Source of the DNA: an uncultured Erysipelotrichaceae bacterium
GTDB taxonomy: Bacteria; Bacillota_I; Bacilli_A; Erysipelotrichales; Erysipelotrichaceae
Direction of reading: 5' to 3'
Length of the DNA stretch: 32,000 nt
Assembly: GCA_942493105.1 (NCBI GenBank)
Contig: OW818668.1
Coordinates: 1,200,001-1,232,000, forward strand
In this document: one piece after another, positions 24,550-30,998 of the stretch
Position numbering within the stretch: position 1 is the stretch's first letter
How the letters are laid out: each line of letters begins with the position of its first letter
Translations under genes and position numbers: made by a program
The notes under the pieces: generated by a model
The model's database searches: none
What the model was told of the DNA's origin: nothing
The model's input: only the letters and a program-made list of their open reading frames with translations

Positions 24550-24583
24550 AATTGTCTCCTTGAAACATCCCATTGAGGGACTG

Positions 24584-24592
24584 TGCTATAAT
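24584..24592 (+). promoter_or_regulatory. Extended -10 element (TGcTATAAT) 9 nt upstream of ATG 24602
   Basis: TGCTATAAT at 24584-24592. There is no SD between it and ATG 24602, which implies a leaderless or near-leaderless mRNA. Confidence 0.45.
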
Positions 24593-24601
24593 CATTGTAG
24601 C

Positions 24602-25567
24602 ATGAGCCACCTTCAAAACAGATTGAAACCCATCCAACTTAGATTTTTGACCTTTCTAGTTATCTTCAGCCTTCTTTTAACGGGCTGTGCTTTGTTTCCA
24701 CAGAAATTCAAAGAAGTTGTAAAAGATTATAAGCCAAATCATACGTATTATAAACCTGAACTCATCGTACAAACACTCTCACAGCCTTTGTATGTTAAAG
24801 AAAAAGTTGTTTATCGCGTGGATTCAGAAATGGAATTGGCTGTCTTAGCCATGATCCTTTTTGAAGAAGGCACGTTTCAGATCTATTTCGAAGATCGCGA
24901 TTTTTCAATCGATCGTACTTATGCATATCTAGAATCTTTGATGATTCATGCGTTTAGATTCAGTATGGGAACCAAGACTTATACACAAGGCGATGAAACC
25001 GTTAAAACGTTAGATTATGTCAAAATCGAACTCTATAATGATCGAATGGGCCAAGTCGATACAGCCATTGATACGTTCATTGACAGCAAAATCAATTCAT
25101 CTGATTCACCTGAAAAAATACTAAGAGACATTCATGATGGTTTGATCCTGACCACAAAATATGACACGGCTATTTTAGAGCTGGATTTGACCAATATTGT
25201 AGATCATACGCCGTTTGAAGCCTATGGGCTGTTTGTAGAGCACAAAGCTGTTTGCAGTGGCTACGCCAAAGCATTTGTGGGAGTTGCCAAAGAGATGAAC
25301 ATTCCTGTTTTGACAGTATCCAGTACTAAAATGAATCATGCGTGGAATTTGGTCTATGTCAATGATGCATGGCTCTATATCGATGTCACCTTTGATGACC
25401 CAGTCCCTGATAAAGCAGGACGAGTTGTAGACACTTACTTCTTATTGACCTACAACAAGATCACCAAAGCCTCTTTTACGATCAAAGCCCATGAGTTTGA
25501 CGTGGCCTCTGAGACGACCTTGACTGCAGACCAATATTTAGAATTTGCCCAATATGTTTTCAACTAA
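24602..25567 (+). CDS. Transglutaminase-like (Cys-His-Asp) lipoprotein
   Basis: ORF track 24560..25567. I prefer ATG 24602 (MSHLQNRLKPIQLRFLTFLVIFSLLLTGC, lipobox LTGC). The core HKAVCSGYAKAF...NHAWNLVY...YIDVTFDD matches the transglutaminase-like cysteine-protease fold. Confidence 0.75.
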   Translation: MSHLQNRLKPIQLRFLTFLVIFSLLLTGCALFPQKFKEVVKDYKPNHTYYKPELIVQTLSQPLYVKEKVVYRVDSEMELAVLAMILFEEGTFQIYFEDRDFSIDRTYAYLESLMIHAFRFSMGTKTYTQGDETVKTLDYVKIELYNDRMGQVDTAIDTFIDSKINSSDSPEKILRDIHDGLILTTKYDTAILELDLTNIVDHTPFEAYGLFVEHKAVCSGYAKAFVGVAKEMNIPVLTVSSTKMNHAWNLVYVNDAWLYIDVTFDDPVPDKAGRVVDTYFLLTYNKITKASFTIKAHEFDVASETTLTADQYLEFAQYVFN

Positions 25568-25684: not shown

Positions 25685-25777
25685 ATGAGCAGAAGTTTTC
25701 TTGTCCAATTTGAGACACCAATTGTAACAGAGACACCTGTCTTTGTTGTCGTGAATAAGACTAAATTTGCCTTTTAA
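25685..25777 (+). CDS. 30-codon leader ORF (putative regulatory leader peptide)
   Basis: GAGG (25674-25677) lies 7 nt before ATG 25685. Peptide MSRSFLVQFETPIVTETPVFVVVNKTKFAF*. The TAA (25775-25777) overlaps the first bases of the terminator stem. Confidence 0.5.
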   Translation: MSRSFLVQFETPIVTETPVFVVVNKTKFAF

Positions 25778-25810
25778 GATGGACTTAACACGTTCATCTT
25801 TTTTATTGTT
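25776..25810 (+). terminator. Intrinsic terminator acting as an attenuator in the 5' leader of the ankyrin/EF-G-paralog operon
   Basis: AAGATGGAC (25776-25784) / GTTCATCTT (25792-25800): 9 bp including one G-U, with a 7-nt loop, followed by TTTTATTGTTT. Located 20 nt upstream of the AGGAGGA SD of the ankyrin gene. Confidence 0.65.
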
Positions 25811-25829
25811 TGAACACAGGAGGACAACA

Positions 25830-26498
25830 ATGGATCAAACAAATCAAGTATTCTGGGAAGCTGCTGCGGCTGGAGATCTCTCTAAGGTCGTATTGGCAGT
25901 CAACCAAGGCGCTGACGTCAATGTCAGAAATGCTGAAGCTCGTACCGCATTGATGAGAAGTTCTAAACGAGGTTTTGAGAAAGTCGTTCGTTATCTCATC
26001 GACAATGGTGCCGATGTGAATGCGAAAGACAACAATGGGAAGACCGCTTTGATGGGTGCTGCTAAAAAAGGGCACATCGATATCGCCAAGATGTTGATTG
26101 ATTCAGGAGCCGATGTGAATGTCGCTGATAATAAAGGCAAAACTGCCTTGATCAGAGCCAGTTTCTTAGGTCAATTGGATGTGGTAGAACTCTTGATCAA
26201 GTCTAGAGTCAATGTGAATGCACAAGATGATATGGGTAGAACCCCTTTGATGGAAGCATGCAATGCCTTCAAATTCGATGTGATCAAAGCTTTATTGGCA
26301 GCAGGAGCCAATATCAATGCCGTGGATGATAATGGATGTACAGCCTTGATGAGAGCAGCCTATATCGGTTATACCGAAATGGTGCAATACCTCTTGGATC
26401 ATGGCGCAGACAAAGAAGTGATCGATAAAGGCGGCAATAAAGCCGTGCATTATGTTAGAACCGAATGTTTGGCTGAACTTAAGCCTTTACTTAAATAG
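25830..26498 (+). CDS. Ankyrin-repeat protein (six 33-aa ANK repeats plus a C-terminal cap), cytoplasmic
   Basis: ORF track 25767..26498. ATG 25830 lies 5 nt after AGGAGGA. Six tandem units of the form xTALMxAxxxGxxxxVxxLIxxGADVNAxDxxG. No signal peptide or TM segment. Confidence 0.9.
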   Translation: MDQTNQVFWEAAAAGDLSKVVLAVNQGADVNVRNAEARTALMRSSKRGFEKVVRYLIDNGADVNAKDNNGKTALMGAAKKGHIDIAKMLIDSGADVNVADNKGKTALIRASFLGQLDVVELLIKSRVNVNAQDDMGRTPLMEACNAFKFDVIKALLAAGANINAVDDNGCTALMRAAYIGYTEMVQYLLDHGADKEVIDKGGNKAVHYVRTECLAELKPLLK

Positions 26499-26512
26499 GA
26501 GCCCCAATCACC

Positions 26513-28594
26513 ATGAAAGATTATGCAGCCTTAGATATACGTAACATTGTCTTACTGGGTCATTCCGGTGTAGGAAAGACCCAAATCGTAGAAAGTATGC
26601 TGTATTTTACGAAAGTGACCGATCGTATGGGGAAGACCATCGATGGGAATTCTGTCATAGATTTTGATCAGGATGAAATTAAAAAAGGATTATCGATTTA
26701 TACAGGATTAGCCCCGATCGAATGGAAAGATCACAAGATCAATTTCATCGATACCCCAGGCTACTTTGATTATGCTCAGGAACAAGAAGCAGGCTTAGCG
26801 GTTGCAGACAATGCCTTGATCGTCGTCAGTGCCAAAGATGGGATCCAAACCGGAACCATCAGAGCTTGGAAATCGGTCAGTAAACGTAAGTTGCCTACGA
26901 TCTTCTTCATCAATAAGATCGATGAAGAAAATACATCATTTGATAAAGTGTATGCTCAACTCAGAGACCAATTTGGAAAGTCTGTCATACCTTTTGAAAT
27001 GCCCATCATTGAGAATGGTAAAGTCGTTGGATCCATCAATATCTTAAAGAATAAAGCCTGGTACTTAAAAGACAGAAATACCCCACAAGAAGTCCCTGCA
27101 GCTTTAAAAGCTCAAGTCGATGATTACCTCAATCAGATCTCAGAAGCTGTTGCGATGACATCTGATGAGTTGATGGAGAAGTTTTTCTCAGGGGAACCTT
27201 TTCAAGAAGCACAATTGATCCAAGGCGTTAGAGCTGGGGTCAGATCAGGTGATATTCGTCCTGTGTATTGTGGCTCCGCAACCCAACAGATCGGTATTGA
27301 GCGCTTATTGGATCTGATTGGAGAATATTTCCCGTCTTATGGTGAAAAAGGGCTTATTGAAGCTAAAAATCTTAGAGGTGAAGTGGTTAAATTACGTACC
27401 GATGAAAGTGAATCATTCAGTGCTTTGGTTTATAAGACCATCATTGACCCCTTCGTAGGTCGTATTTCCTATATTAAGGTCATGACTGGGGTTTTGAATT
27501 CAGATTCGGTGGTTCAAAATGTACGTGAAGAAAAACCTGAAAAGATTGCCCAAGTCTTTATCGTCAAAGGCAAGAATCAAATCGCTGTCGGTAAGTTGTT
27601 TACTGGAGATTTAGGCTGTGTCGTCAAACTTCAAGTGACACGCACCAATGATACTTTGGCCATCAAAGGCAAAGAAGTGGTCTATGATCACATCATCTTC
27701 CCAGAAGGTTTGTTGGCGATGAGCATCTTCCCAAAATCCAAACTCGATGAAGATAAACTCAGTTCTTCCTTACAACGCATTGAAGAAGAAGATCCTTCAT
27801 GCAAAGTCGTTAAAAACCCTGAAACCCATGAAATGGTCTTATATGGATTAGGGGATCAACATTTGGATGTCATCGTCAGTAAGCTTCGAAACAAATATAA
27901 AGTCGATGTTGAACTCAGAGAACCACGGATCCCTTATCGTGAAACCATTCGCGGAACTGTTACCGTAGAAGGCAAACATAAGAAACAATCTGGTGGTGCT
28001 GGTCAATTCGGAGATGTCTTCATTACCTTTGAACCCTGTGATTCAATTGAAATGGTCTTTGAAGAAAAAGTATTCGGAGGCGCTGTACCTCGTCAATATT
28101 TCCCAGCCGTAGAAGCTGGTCTTAGAGAAGCCATGGTCAAAGGCGTTTTGGCCGGTTATAAAGTCGTTGGGGTCAAAGCCACTTTGGTGGATGGGAAGTA
28201 TCATGAAGTCGACTCCAAAGAAATCGCGTTTAAAATGGCAGCCCGTTTGGCGTATAAAGCAGGTATGCCCTTGGCTAAACCTGTCCTACTAGAACCTGTC
28301 GTTAAAGTTGCGGTCACCATCCCAGATGAATTTACGGGAGCCGTCATCGGTGATTTCAATAAACGCAGAGGCATCATCTTAGGTATGGAACCCAATGAAG
28401 ATGGCGATCAAGTCGTCTTGGCTGAAGCACCGATGAGTGAAATGATGCGTTATTCAACGGAATTGAGATCATTTACTCAAGGCCGTGGTGTTTATACTCA
28501 AAAATTTGATCGATATGAATTTGCCCCACAGCCTATTGCTGAAAAAGTCATCGCAAATTCTGCCAAAGATCACGAAGAAGAAGAATTGGAATAA
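26513..28594 (+). CDS. EF-G-like translational GTPase paralog (non-canonical G motifs; not in an str-operon context)
   Basis: 693 aa. G1 GHSGVGKT, G3 DTPGY (Tyr at the catalytic His position), G4 NKID, G5 CGSA. Domain IV loops HKKQSGGAGQFGDV and YHEVDSKEIAFKMAA are EF-G-like. Starts 14 nt after the ankyrin gene, with a GGAG overlapping its stop. Confidence 0.9.
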   Translation: MKDYAALDIRNIVLLGHSGVGKTQIVESMLYFTKVTDRMGKTIDGNSVIDFDQDEIKKGLSIYTGLAPIEWKDHKINFIDTPGYFDYAQEQEAGLAVADNALIVVSAKDGIQTGTIRAWKSVSKRKLPTIFFINKIDEENTSFDKVYAQLRDQFGKSVIPFEMPIIENGKVVGSINILKNKAWYLKDRNTPQEVPAALKAQVDDYLNQISEAVAMTSDELMEKFFSGEPFQEAQLIQGVRAGVRSGDIRPVYCGSATQQIGIERLLDLIGEYFPSYGEKGLIEAKNLRGEVVKLRTDESESFSALVYKTIIDPFVGRISYIKVMTGVLNSDSVVQNVREEKPEKIAQVFIVKGKNQIAVGKLFTGDLGCVVKLQVTRTNDTLAIKGKEVVYDHIIFPEGLLAMSIFPKSKLDEDKLSSSLQRIEEEDPSCKVVKNPETHEMVLYGLGDQHLDVIVSKLRNKYKVDVELREPRIPYRETIRGTVTVEGKHKKQSGGAGQFGDVFITFEPCDSIEMVFEEKVFGGAVPRQYFPAVEAGLREAMVKGVLAGYKVVGVKATLVDGKYHEVDSKEIAFKMAARLAYKAGMPLAKPVLLEPVVKVAVTIPDEFTGAVIGDFNKRRGIILGMEPNEDGDQVVLAEAPMSEMMRYSTELRSFTQGRGVYTQKFDRYEFAPQPIAEKVIANSAKDHEEEELE

Positions 28595-28599
28595 GCTTC

Positions 28600-28625
28600 A
28601 AGGCACAATCTTGTGCCTTTTTTTA
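28600..28625 (+). terminator. Intrinsic terminator after the EF-G paralog
   Basis: AAGGCACA (28600-28607) / TGTGCCTT (28612-28619) with loop ATCT, followed by a T-run. Confidence 0.85.
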
Positions 28626-28697
28626 TGACTTGATATGCTTTGTTGGCTTAGAAGGGTTCTTATTTATGCTTGAGTGATTTTGAAGTATAATGAGTAT

Positions 28698-29630
28698 ATG
28701 AGTAAAATCGTTGTATTGGGTGGTGTCAGTGTTGATTTAGTAGGGGTATCTTATGATCCTTTGCGTATGCAAGATTCTAATCCTGGATCAGTATCCTTGT
28801 CTTTTGGTGGAGTTGGAAGAAACATTGCGGAAAACTGTGCCCATTATGGAGCTGAAGTACAACTGATCAGTGTATTTGGAGATGATCACTTAGGTCATCT
28901 GTGTTATAAAGATTGCGTAGAAAGTGGTATAAAAGTCGACCACAGTATTTTTAAGGACCAAACTTCTTCGATGTATCTAGCGATACTGGATCCTAGTGGT
29001 GATCTGGCTTTAGGGGTATCTGATAATTCGATCTTATCATGCTTAAATTATGATTCAATCAAGAGTGCTTTATCGATGATATCTACTCAAGATATCCTTG
29101 TCTTAGAAACCAATTTAGAAAAAGAACTGATCGACATGGTTTTGACACATAAGTCCTGTATGATCGCATGTGATCCGATCTCTACTCATAAAGCAGAGAA
29201 ACTGATCGATCATTTAGGTCAGATCGATATCTTTAAACCCAACGATTTGGAAGCTGCGGTCTATTTTGGATCAGTGCTCACTTCAGATGAAGATTTCCTA
29301 GAAGCTTTACGTTTCTTTAGAAACAAAGGCATCCAAGAAATCATCATCAGTGCTGCTGAAAAAGGGATCTATGTTTCTAAAGGTGAGTCGTATTTTCATT
29401 TATTGACTCCCAGTGTCAAACTCGTCAATGCGACAGGGGCAGGAGATGCCTTCATGGGAGCCTATCTAGTCATGCGTCAGCGCTATGATTTCCAAAGGGC
29501 ACTGGAACTGGCATGTTGTGCCTCACTGCTGACCTTGGAGTCACAAAGGACTGTCCTAAAGGATTTAAGCTTAGAAAGCATCATAACTAAACATGAACGA
29601 AGTATCTTCGTAAGGAAAGACCTATGTTAA
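28698..29630 (+). CDS. psuK: Pseudouridine kinase (PfkB family)
   Basis: ORF track 28674..29630. I prefer ATG 28698 (MSKIVVLGGVSVDL...). Contains GGVGRNIA and a C-terminal GAGDAF motif. Overlaps and precedes psuG. Confidence 0.8.
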   Translation: MSKIVVLGGVSVDLVGVSYDPLRMQDSNPGSVSLSFGGVGRNIAENCAHYGAEVQLISVFGDDHLGHLCYKDCVESGIKVDHSIFKDQTSSMYLAILDPSGDLALGVSDNSILSCLNYDSIKSALSMISTQDILVLETNLEKELIDMVLTHKSCMIACDPISTHKAEKLIDHLGQIDIFKPNDLEAAVYFGSVLTSDEDFLEALRFFRNKGIQEIIISAAEKGIYVSKGESYFHLLTPSVKLVNATGAGDAFMGAYLVMRQRYDFQRALELACCASLLTLESQRTVLKDLSLESIITKHERSIFVRKDLC

Positions 29631-30541
29631 AAATCAATCAAGAAGTAAAGGAAGCATTAAGACAAGGCAAGGCCGTGGTGGCTTTAGAATCAACGATCAT
29701 TTCTCATGGAATGCCTTATCCACAGAATGTTCAAACAGCTCTTGAAGTAGAAGCTGAAATCAGAGCCCATGGGGCAATACCGGCAACCATTGGGATCATT
29801 GATGGGATCATGGTCGTAGGGATGAGTCCTGATGAGATAGAAGCCTTTGGGAAGCGTCATGACATCGTTAAAGTATCAAGGCGTGATTTACCCATGGTCA
29901 TTGCGAATAAGGCGTGGGGAGCCACCACAGTGGCTTCAACCATGATCATAGCGGCTTTGGCGAAGATCGAAGTCTTTGTGACAGGTGGAATCGGCGGAGT
30001 TCACAGAGGTGCTCAAAATTCTTTTGATATTTCTGCAGATCTTCAAGAATTGGCGCATACCAACGTTACCGTGGTCTGTGCAGGAGCCAAAGCCATCTTG
30101 GATCTGCCTTTGACGATGGAATATCTGGAAACCTTTGGGGTTCCTGTCTTAGGTTATCAAAGCGATGAACTGGCAGCTTTCTATACCCCTAAATCAAACT
30201 TAAGAGTCGACCAAAGAGTCAATACAGCCCAAGAAATCGCTCGAATCATTCAAGTTAAACGTGAATTGAAATTAGACGGAGGGGTCTTGATCAGTAATCC
30301 GATCCCAAAAGAATATGCGATGGATGAACAGATCATAACCAAAGCCATTGATCAAGCGCTCAAAGAAAGTCATCAAGAAAACATCAGCGGGAAAGATGTG
30401 ACCCCTTACTTATTAGCCAAAGTCAAAGCATTGACTGGTGGTGATTCACTTGAATCCAATATTGCCTTAATCAAGAATAATGCGTTGGTTGGAGCACAAA
30501 TCGCTGTTGCCTTAAGCAAAGGAGTACAAGATGTACGATAA
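29624..30541 (+). CDS. psuG: Pseudouridine-5'-phosphate glycosidase
   Basis: ...VVALESTIISHGMPYPQN...TGGIGGVHRGA...DISADL...VVCAGAKAILD..., characteristic of the PsuG/IndA family. 305 aa. Confidence 0.9.
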   Translation: MLKINQEVKEALRQGKAVVALESTIISHGMPYPQNVQTALEVEAEIRAHGAIPATIGIIDGIMVVGMSPDEIEAFGKRHDIVKVSRRDLPMVIANKAWGATTVASTMIIAALAKIEVFVTGGIGGVHRGAQNSFDISADLQELAHTNVTVVCAGAKAILDLPLTMEYLETFGVPVLGYQSDELAAFYTPKSNLRVDQRVNTAQEIARIIQVKRELKLDGGVLISNPIPKEYAMDEQIITKAIDQALKESHQENISGKDVTPYLLAKVKALTGGDSLESNIALIKNNALVGAQIAVALSKGVQDVR

Positions 30542-30998
30542 ATGTGTTAAATTATTACAAGAAAGAGGCGTCACTTTAGAAGATATCGCTGAATTGGTCC
30601 TTTTTCTTCAAGGTAAATATCATCCGGAGATCGGTATGGAAGAAATCATGCTGACGGTCAAAGGCGTTATCGCTAAACGTGAAGTTCAACATGCGATCAT
30701 GACCGGCATCTTGATTGATCAGATGGCTGAATCCAATATCCCAATGGATGAACAATTACGTCAAACCTTGATGAATGATGAATCGTTATATGGCATCGAT
30801 GAAGTATTGGCTTATGGCATCTGTAATCTGTATGGTTCGATCGCATTGACCAATTATGGGTATATCGATCGTGAGAAGCCTGGAATCTTGGCTAGTATCA
30901 ATGAACACGGTGCCCAATGTAATGTATTCTTAGACGATATCGTTGGGGCAATTGCGGCCAGTGCGGCCAGCAAAATAGCCCATACCCATGGAAAGTAA
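30531..30998 (+). CDS. PgpA-family protein (B. subtilis YutG-like phosphatidylglycerophosphatase A homolog)
   Basis: LLQERGVTLEDIAELV...LYGIDEVL...YGSIALTNYGYIDREKPGI...FLDDIVGAIAASAASKIAH is collinear with YutG as I recall it. Overlaps the psuG end by 11 nt. AAGGAG SD. Confidence 0.75.
   Translation: MYDKCVKLLQERGVTLEDIAELVLFLQGKYHPEIGMEEIMLTVKGVIAKREVQHAIMTGILIDQMAESNIPMDEQLRQTLMNDESLYGIDEVLAYGICNLYGSIALTNYGYIDREKPGILASINEHGAQCNVFLDDIVGAIAASAASKIAHTHGK

Follow-up and report, generated by a model that had tools for sequence, protein, structure and literature searches.

An ankyrin-repeat gene paired with a His-less EF-G2 paralog in a leader-attenuated operon of the Erysipelotrichaceae, and a proposed role for its product as a partner of the GTPase

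In the window analyzed here, the whole 32,000-nucleotide stretch of DNA from an uncultured Erysipelotrichaceae bacterium, a gene encoding a 222-aa cytoplasmic all-ankyrin protein (ank, 25830..26498, + strand) is followed by a gene encoding a 693-aa EF-G2-type paralog of elongation factor G (EF-G2, 26513..28594, + strand), and together they make up a single bicistronic operon that is attenuated by a leader and bounded by two terminators. The pairing of the two genes is real, well defined and apparently undescribed. We give an even chance to the proposal that the ank protein is a dedicated cytoplasmic binding partner, whether cofactor or regulator, of the His-less EF-G2 protein. Genomic linkage, rate covariation and groove conservation, all of them read from sequence, suggest this partnership.

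The ank gene, which was delimited by ORF reading, Pfam matches, orthologs, an AF2 model and dN/dS values, is real and under purifying selection: dN/dS is 0.06–0.09 against three congeners. It is the sole ankyrin gene of the 2.03-Mb genome. Sequence reading places its Shine-Dalgarno sequence, AGGAGG, at 25818..25823 (+), with the ATG 6 nt further on, and GGAGG precedes ank in all 29 orthologous loci. A longer form beginning at a TTG at 25767 was rejected; that codon lies inside the upstream leader/terminator and is used by no ortholog. At the 3' end of ank, the six bases TAGGAG (26496..26501, +, sequence reading) comprise the ank stop codon and the GGAG Shine-Dalgarno sequence of the EF-G paralog. 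The earlier note had reported that the stop codon overlaps this GGAG, and the two do share one base, 26498, between the TAG at 26496–26498 and the GGAG at 26498–26501. The ATG of the EF-G paralog lies at 26513, leaving 14 nt between it and the ank stop, and the two genes are in different reading frames.

The transcription unit can be defined as leader-attenuator, ank, EF-G2 and terminator, because terminators flank the pair, none lies between the genes, and the leader layout recurs in other genomes. A leader ORF of 30 codons (MSRSFLVQFETPIVTETPVFVVVNKTKFAF), equipped with its own Shine-Dalgarno sequence GTGAGG, was identified by sequence reading at 25685..25777 (+). Between this ORF and ank, a terminator-like hairpin with a 9-bp stem, a 7-nt loop and a T tract occupies 25776..25806 (+) and forms the attenuator; the TAA stop codon of the leader ORF shares the first bases of the terminator stem. 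At the other end of the two-gene operon, the terminator scan located an intrinsic terminator with an 8-bp stem and a T tract at 28600..28627 (+), and nothing convincing was found as a terminator between ank and EF-G2. The hairpins of the two terminators were placed at 25776–25800 and 28600–28619. Most of 24 orthologous loci have a leader of ~30 codons running into a terminator, 20–40 nt before the ank Shine-Dalgarno sequence, and the leader peptide sequence is not conserved among the 24. Leader-peptide transcription attenuators are known from ribosome-targeting resistance genes, such as tet(M) of Tn916 and msrD. In those systems a short translated leader likewise runs into an intrinsic terminator before a ribosome-directed factor; unlike tet(M) and msrD, the genes regulated here are not resistance determinants by score.

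In the regions upstream of ank that were compared (the window, L024–L043, L060, L064, L068 and L069), approximately 15 of 24 leaders end in Phe right before the stop codon at the terminator stem, and this C-terminal Phe may have a part in the sensing of termination by the attenuator. The neighbors of the operon encode a transglutaminase-like lipoprotein, an M3 peptidase and psuK/psuG. The gene before the leader (window 24560–25567) encodes a transglutaminase-core protein with a weak match to the MAG6410 Mycoplasma-type lipoprotein model (58 bits vs 450). Downstream of the operon (window 28674–30998) come psuK, psuG and a gene of the PgpA family, which are partly syntenic with it in several but not all genera.

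Every test applied places the ank protein in the ankyrin-repeat class, by its PF00023 and PF12796 scores as well as by its solenoid fold. Pfam matches to Ank, Ank_2 and Ank_4 have E values of 1e-45 to 1e-47, with bit scores of 153.8, 153 and 158.8 against gathering cut-offs of 21.1, 27.3 and 22.7, respectively. An exact 33-residue register at residues 34–198 defines five internal repeats (25929..26423, +, supported by the register and by groove conservation), flanked by an N-terminal cap (residues 1–33) and a C-terminal cap (residues 199–222), both assigned from the repeat register and the AF2 model. The protein thus consists almost wholly of 33-aa repeats, as first proposed, and the original count of six repeats is a fair one, although strictly there are seven helix-pair units: the N-cap, five internal repeats and the C-cap. 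Each repeat has an identity of its own, since the repeats are only 30–48% identical to one another. The AF2 model, built with 25 orthologs, has a mean pLDDT of 97.2 and contains seven helix pairs with a 33-residue period.

The best Foldseek matches to the model, with a TM score of 0.96, are designed ankyrin proteins of the N5C type (DARPins; PDB 6moi and 6moj), which superimpose with an rmsd of 1.1 Å over 219 columns, are 36–39% identical in sequence, and have the same length and architecture. Compared with the DARPins, the ank protein is natural and has a specific surface at inner-helix positions 5, 10, 13 and 14 of the repeat. Positions 2, 3 and 33, which are the ones also randomized in DARPin libraries, are variable in the ank protein.

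A cytoplasmic location without signal peptide or transmembrane segment, again proposed in the earlier note, agrees with the sequence. The highest Kyte-Doolittle 19-residue mean is 1.36, compared with ~1.6 for a transmembrane segment, and the N terminus (MDQTNQ...) is acidic, contains no Lys or Arg within its first 8 residues, hence no basic n-region, and is built into the first cap helix. Hydropathy and inspection of the N terminus thus gave no sign of secretion.

Three known kinds of ankyrin protein were considered as assignments and rejected. The NCBIfam models of Dot/Icm type IV secretion system ankyrin effectors (NF0430xx) give at best 101 bits vs 600 (AnkY), in repeat regions only. An exported helper of the AnkB type would be expected to carry a signal peptide or anchor and to have a catalase in the operon, and neither is present. 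For the MZA/PDC-M72 anti-phage system, the MzaA model scores 139 bits vs 800, and the PADLOC matches cover the repeat parts of longer models.

The downstream gene was identified from Pfam, NCBIfam and motif reading. Its product contains all five EF-G domains recognized by Pfam (GTP_EFTU, D2, III, IV and C). The P-loop GHSGVGKT and the G4 motif NKID are kept; switch II reads DTPGY, and the catalytic His is absent. The protein passes NCBIfam NF009381 (867 bits, cut-off 583) and fails the EF-G equivalog TIGR00484 (616 < 659 bits), and the tetracycline ribosomal-protection models are below cut-off, with tet_protect at 309 bits vs 775. Canonical EF-G, with DTPGH, is encoded elsewhere in the genome (C1:450342-452408) and is 35% identical to the paralog. 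The dN/dS of EF-G2 is 0.02–0.05. DTPGY was found in all EF-G2 proteins of the family that were examined, and 24 ankyrin-less relatives have DxPG[S/T/Y/A/I/F/N]. The paralog belongs to the EF-G2/EFG II subfamily, the signature of which is an altered switch II His (PMC3150367; B. thetaiotaomicron fusA2, PMC6989115). Like other EF-G2/EFG II paralogs, it is encoded outside the str operon, is His-less and exists beside a canonical EF-G; whereas Bacteroides fusA2 is under a transcription factor, the operon described here is under a leader-peptide attenuator. An ankyrin or other dedicated partner gene is mentioned neither in the main EFG II survey (Margus, Remm and Tenson 2011, PMC3150367) nor in PMC6989115 or the 2023 EMBO J paper of Han et al. 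(cited in PMC12172202), and a full-text literature search combining ankyrin with EF-G2 or elongation factor G returned nothing relevant.

The EF-G2 proteins of the sister family (L044–L055) have a degenerate G4, with SGLD, NGLD or NNID in place of NKxD, in addition to lacking the catalytic His, and may no longer be specific for guanine nucleotide, judging from these motifs. NKxD is kept by EF-G2 of the Erysipelotrichaceae and of other Bacilli families.

Linkage of ank to EF-G2 is a property of the whole family. In a first sample of Erysipelotrichaceae, a full-length ank ortholog (48–95% identity) was found in 33 of 36 genomes, from 17 genera, and in an order-wide sample in 205 of 218 Erysipelotrichaceae genomes from ~67 genera (E <= 1e-49), always as a single copy of ~222 aa. 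Only one of 81 sister-family genomes contained an ortholog, a weak match, and in ~360 further genomes of the class and phylum the best match (5e-28) was partial and in longer proteins. Wherever both genes were located (32/32 genomes, 17 genera), ank is directly upstream of EF-G2 on the same strand, with a gap of 1–24 nt in the 29 loci read and, in most of these, a G-rich Shine-Dalgarno sequence right after the stop codon. The earlier note, which proposed a scaffold role toward the GTPase or the ribosome, had suggested that orthologs be sought together with their genomic partners, and that a majority in unrelated contexts would speak against such a role; each ortholog whose position was compared with that of EF-G2 directly precedes the EF-G paralog and shares its strand, and none of them was seen in another context. 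Its suggestion of co-translation also gains ground, the conserved tight spacing and the Shine-Dalgarno sequence overlapping the stop codon being consistent with coupled translation.

The pair is maintained while its surroundings change: among 12 genera, four share no neighboring gene within 4 kb and two share one, and the pair is kept in all. It is also lost as a pair. Nine of ten family genomes without ank, four of them complete and single-contig, have canonical EF-G only, and in the tenth EF-G2 runs into the contig end exactly at the expected position of ank. Among ~240 genomes of the family no natural Ank-EF-G2 fusion was detected, and the open frames surrounding ank encode 222–297 aa. In genus g39, six of 12 species are without both ank and EF-G2, including four near-complete genomes of 1.7–1.9 Mb (G170, G180, G188 and G207), three of which are single-contig; this genus constitutes a natural knockout set for comparative work. 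One genome contains, far from the pair, a second ankyrin-like stretch (G081:C1:729271-729747) that is 37% identical to residues 9–167 and has an internal TAA, and which may be a decayed duplicate.

Outside the family, the sister group, seven further families of Bacilli and Monoglobus commonly have His-less, ankyrin-less EF-G2 proteins with 40–48% identity, whose genes stand alone or in varied contexts. Because ankyrin-less EF-G2 is common so nearby, ank is a lineage-specific addition to an older factor rather than a general EF-G2 subunit. Conversely, none of 64 generic ankyrin loci of other phyla has EF-G2 beside it, the only nearby GTPase matches being two weak ones (23% and 26% identity). 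In one locus, from an alphaproteobacterial MAG, a generic ankyrin gene is preceded at ~1 kb by a translational-GTPase-like frame (L113:631-1977); this frame is 23% identical to EF-G2 over 468 aa, and the proximity is probably coincidence. Carriage of the pair by mobile elements was considered and rejected, the best EF-G2 match in the plasmid collection being 48.5% identical (Monoglobus, with no ankyrin gene upstream). Phage matches to Ank are generic, at <= 39% identity, and no close plasmid or phage copy was found. Word-indexed searches of protein sequences, with either the ank protein alone or the ortholog alignment as query, gave almost entirely generic or consensus-like ankyrins plus one ortholog fragment, and so carry no information on distribution. 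Ten orthologs looked up as exact sequences in the protein collection gave no match. A HMMER search of 1.84 billion representatives gave 749,231 matches, the best 150 of which are all proteins of 769–6572 aa; giant multi-ankyrin proteins dominate these results because scores are summed over repeats, and they carry no orthology information.

Conservation within the repeats was assessed by per-column entropy in 17 orthologs filtered at 80% identity, with repeats numbered in the standard way, D1 xx G4 x T6 ... G15, in which the concave groove is lined by helix 1. Mean entropy is 0.43 bits at the groove positions (5, 10, 13 and 14), compared with 0.50 bits for the structural framework, 2.08 bits for the outer helix and 1.98 bits for the finger tips (positions 2, 3 and 33); the difference between groove and outer helix gives a Mann-Whitney p = 2e-8. 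Repeat by repeat, the groove residues are R38, R43, K46 and R47; K71, G76, K79 and K80; K/R104, R109, F112 and L113; R137, E142, A146 and F147; C170, R175, Y178 and Y181 in the last internal repeat; and Y208 and R210 in the C-cap. The resulting stripe is continuous, basic in repeats 2–4 and 6 and has an aromatic/hydrophobic patch in repeats 4–7. Only 2–27% of 64 unrelated ankyrin proteins have the same residue at these positions, and the groove residues are specific to the ortholog group and are not the generic ankyrin consensus. A groove that is both fixed and family-specific suggests one conserved ligand, and this pattern of conservation points to a single fixed ligand that is most likely EF-G2 or the ribosome. 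Overall, the ank protein is near neutral (pI ~6) and EF-G2 is acidic (pI ~5.2).

Evolutionary rates of the two proteins are also related. Over 20 genomes, the pairwise distances computed for Ank follow those for EF-G2 with r = 0.92, and the partial mirror-tree correlation given canonical EF-G is 0.81 (Mantel p ~2e-4), a value inflated by the fact that the control evolves half as fast (mean distances: Ank 0.59, EF-G2 0.57, canonical EF-G 0.28). Joint loss and correlated distances are, moreover, partly expected without binding, since neighboring genes are deleted together and, where there is transfer, move together. Within EF-G2, ten residues are the same throughout the family and absent from 25 ankyrin-less EF-G2 proteins. 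Six of them, Y147, E162, W183, R244, R264 and Y276, fall within residues 147–276, the region of the G' insert, a clustering that was noticed post hoc and among ten sites. The family-specific acidic residues of EF-G2 show no enrichment in any domain.

These observations have to be weighed against readings in which the ank protein does not act on EF-G2 as a partner. A basic groove could equally accommodate rRNA, which makes a ribosome-binding role a serious rival: the ank protein would have the ribosome itself as ligand, contacting either rRNA or one of the ribosomal proteins, perhaps near the stalk or the factor-binding site, and would serve the same pathway with no direct EF-G2 contact. RRF, which works with EF-G, provides a model for a shared pathway of this kind. 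Approximately twelve conserved Arg/Lys residues line the groove of a protein that is otherwise near neutral, the leader-translation gate links the operon to ribosome state, and the operon and co-occurrence data fit equally as well as they do direct EF-G2 binding. The C-terminal half of the groove, however, is aromatic and hydrophobic (F112, L113, F147, Y178, Y181 and Y208), as protein interfaces typically are, and the ribosome is highly conserved whereas Ank evolves like EF-G2, at about twice the rate of canonical EF-G. It is also general knowledge that protein ligands of ankyrin repeats are far commoner than RNA. We regard ribosome binding of this kind as unlikely, though a real contender. 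More doubtful is the possibility that ank is a passenger of the operon whose product has some unrelated ligand in the cytoplasm, the gene being kept in place by the shared promoter and attenuator. In favor of a passenger, EF-G2 does without such a gene elsewhere; yet the arrangement has been kept in >200 species and ~67 genera despite rearrangement of its flanks, neither gene of the pair was found alone, and their evolutionary rates match.

The layout of the operon, with a small gene first, tight spacing, joint loss and fast evolution, resembles that of a type II toxin-antitoxin system, and EF-G2, which retains the P-loop and NKxD without the catalytic His, could lock onto ribosomes. The ank protein might then be an antitoxin-like inhibitor that holds EF-G2 off ribosomes until needed. 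Ankyrin-less, His-less EF-G2 proteins are nevertheless widespread and evidently tolerated; the 693-aa protein with its full EF-G architecture and low dN/dS is unlike a toxin; EF-G2 has no PADLOC match and the ankyrin protein has only repeat-level ones; and no plasmid or phage copies were found. We hold the inhibitor to be improbable, and below the passenger in our estimation. That the ank protein leaves the cytoplasm, as an effector that is secreted or injected or as an AnkB-like helper in the periplasm, we judge very improbable indeed. Such a role would draw on NCBIfam, where Legionella Dot/Icm Ank effectors and MzaA are matched weakly, and on the PADLOC ankyrin models, but these matches all concern the repeats only and score far under cut-off, and it has to contend with the lack of a signal peptide or transmembrane segment, with a Gram-positive host family that includes free-living environmental MAGs, and with a housekeeping context that has no catalase or secretion-system neighbor.

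If the ank protein is instead a partner of EF-G2, the parts of the operon could work together as follows. Translation of the leader, which ends in the terminator stem, would set the amount of ank protein and EF-G2 made, and output of the module would follow the condition of the ribosome pool, with the leader reading ribosome performance and setting read-through. The ank protein would be made first and, through coupled translation, in step with EF-G2. Its basic/aromatic groove would then clamp an acidic surface of EF-G2; as far as we can guess at present, it would dock at the region of the G' insert, which contains most of the family-specific invariant EF-G2 residues. Once bound, the ank protein could govern the entry to and exit from the ribosome of a factor that binds GTP and is impaired in its hydrolysis. 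EF-G2 in general does not need such a partner, since EF-G2-type factors work without an ankyrin gene elsewhere. The full proposal, in which the ank protein would be the first ankyrin-repeat protein to serve a bacterial translational GTPase as its dedicated cofactor, with its groove on G', control of ribosome entry and exit, and a leader switch, is advanced tentatively, as something we consider a little less than an even prospect.

Several known systems offer analogies for such a role. FusB and FusC of staphylococci, products of fusidic-acid resistance genes, are small cytoplasmic proteins that have the binding of canonical EF-G as their sole task and change how long it stays on the ribosome. 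As small cytoplasmic EF-G binders from Firmicutes they are the closest functional model for the role proposed for ank; they differ from it in having a non-ankyrin fold, in targeting canonical EF-G, and in not being encoded in an operon with EF-G. A FusB-like domain was not found in the ank protein by Pfam or NCBIfam, which matched ankyrin families only, and any likeness to FusB would be one of function at best. Among eukaryotic chaperones, the ankyrin protein Yar1 binds ribosomal protein uS3, and the armadillo-type protein Hgh1 binds eEF2, the EF-G homolog. The possible likeness lies in an all-repeat solenoid that holds one translation protein in its groove; the difference is that Yar1 and Hgh1 are eukaryotic, have no operon logic, and bear no sequence relation beyond repeat type. 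We find no homology of the ank protein with FusB, Hgh1 or Yar1. In the katB-ankB pair of Pseudomonas aeruginosa, AnkB is exported or membrane-anchored and is thought to assist the periplasmic catalase. There too a bacterial ankyrin gene is co-transcribed with its neighbor enzyme, but the ank protein described here has no export signal and its neighbor is a cytoplasmic GTPase.

EF-G2-type paralogs are widespread, their role is settled in very few organisms, and the literature that we found treats them as stand-alone factors. A co-inherited, family-wide partner gene with a fixed groove makes the role of EF-G2 more testable, and a partner of EF-G2 could help to reveal the function of a His-less EF-G and the means by which normal elongation is protected from it. 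Bacterial ankyrin proteins are mostly discussed as secreted effectors, and, if the proposal is true, ank would add a housekeeping cytoplasmic role to them. Since Erysipelotrichaceae are common in the gut and in the environment, the module may matter for how these bacteria cope with starvation or with drugs that act on translation.
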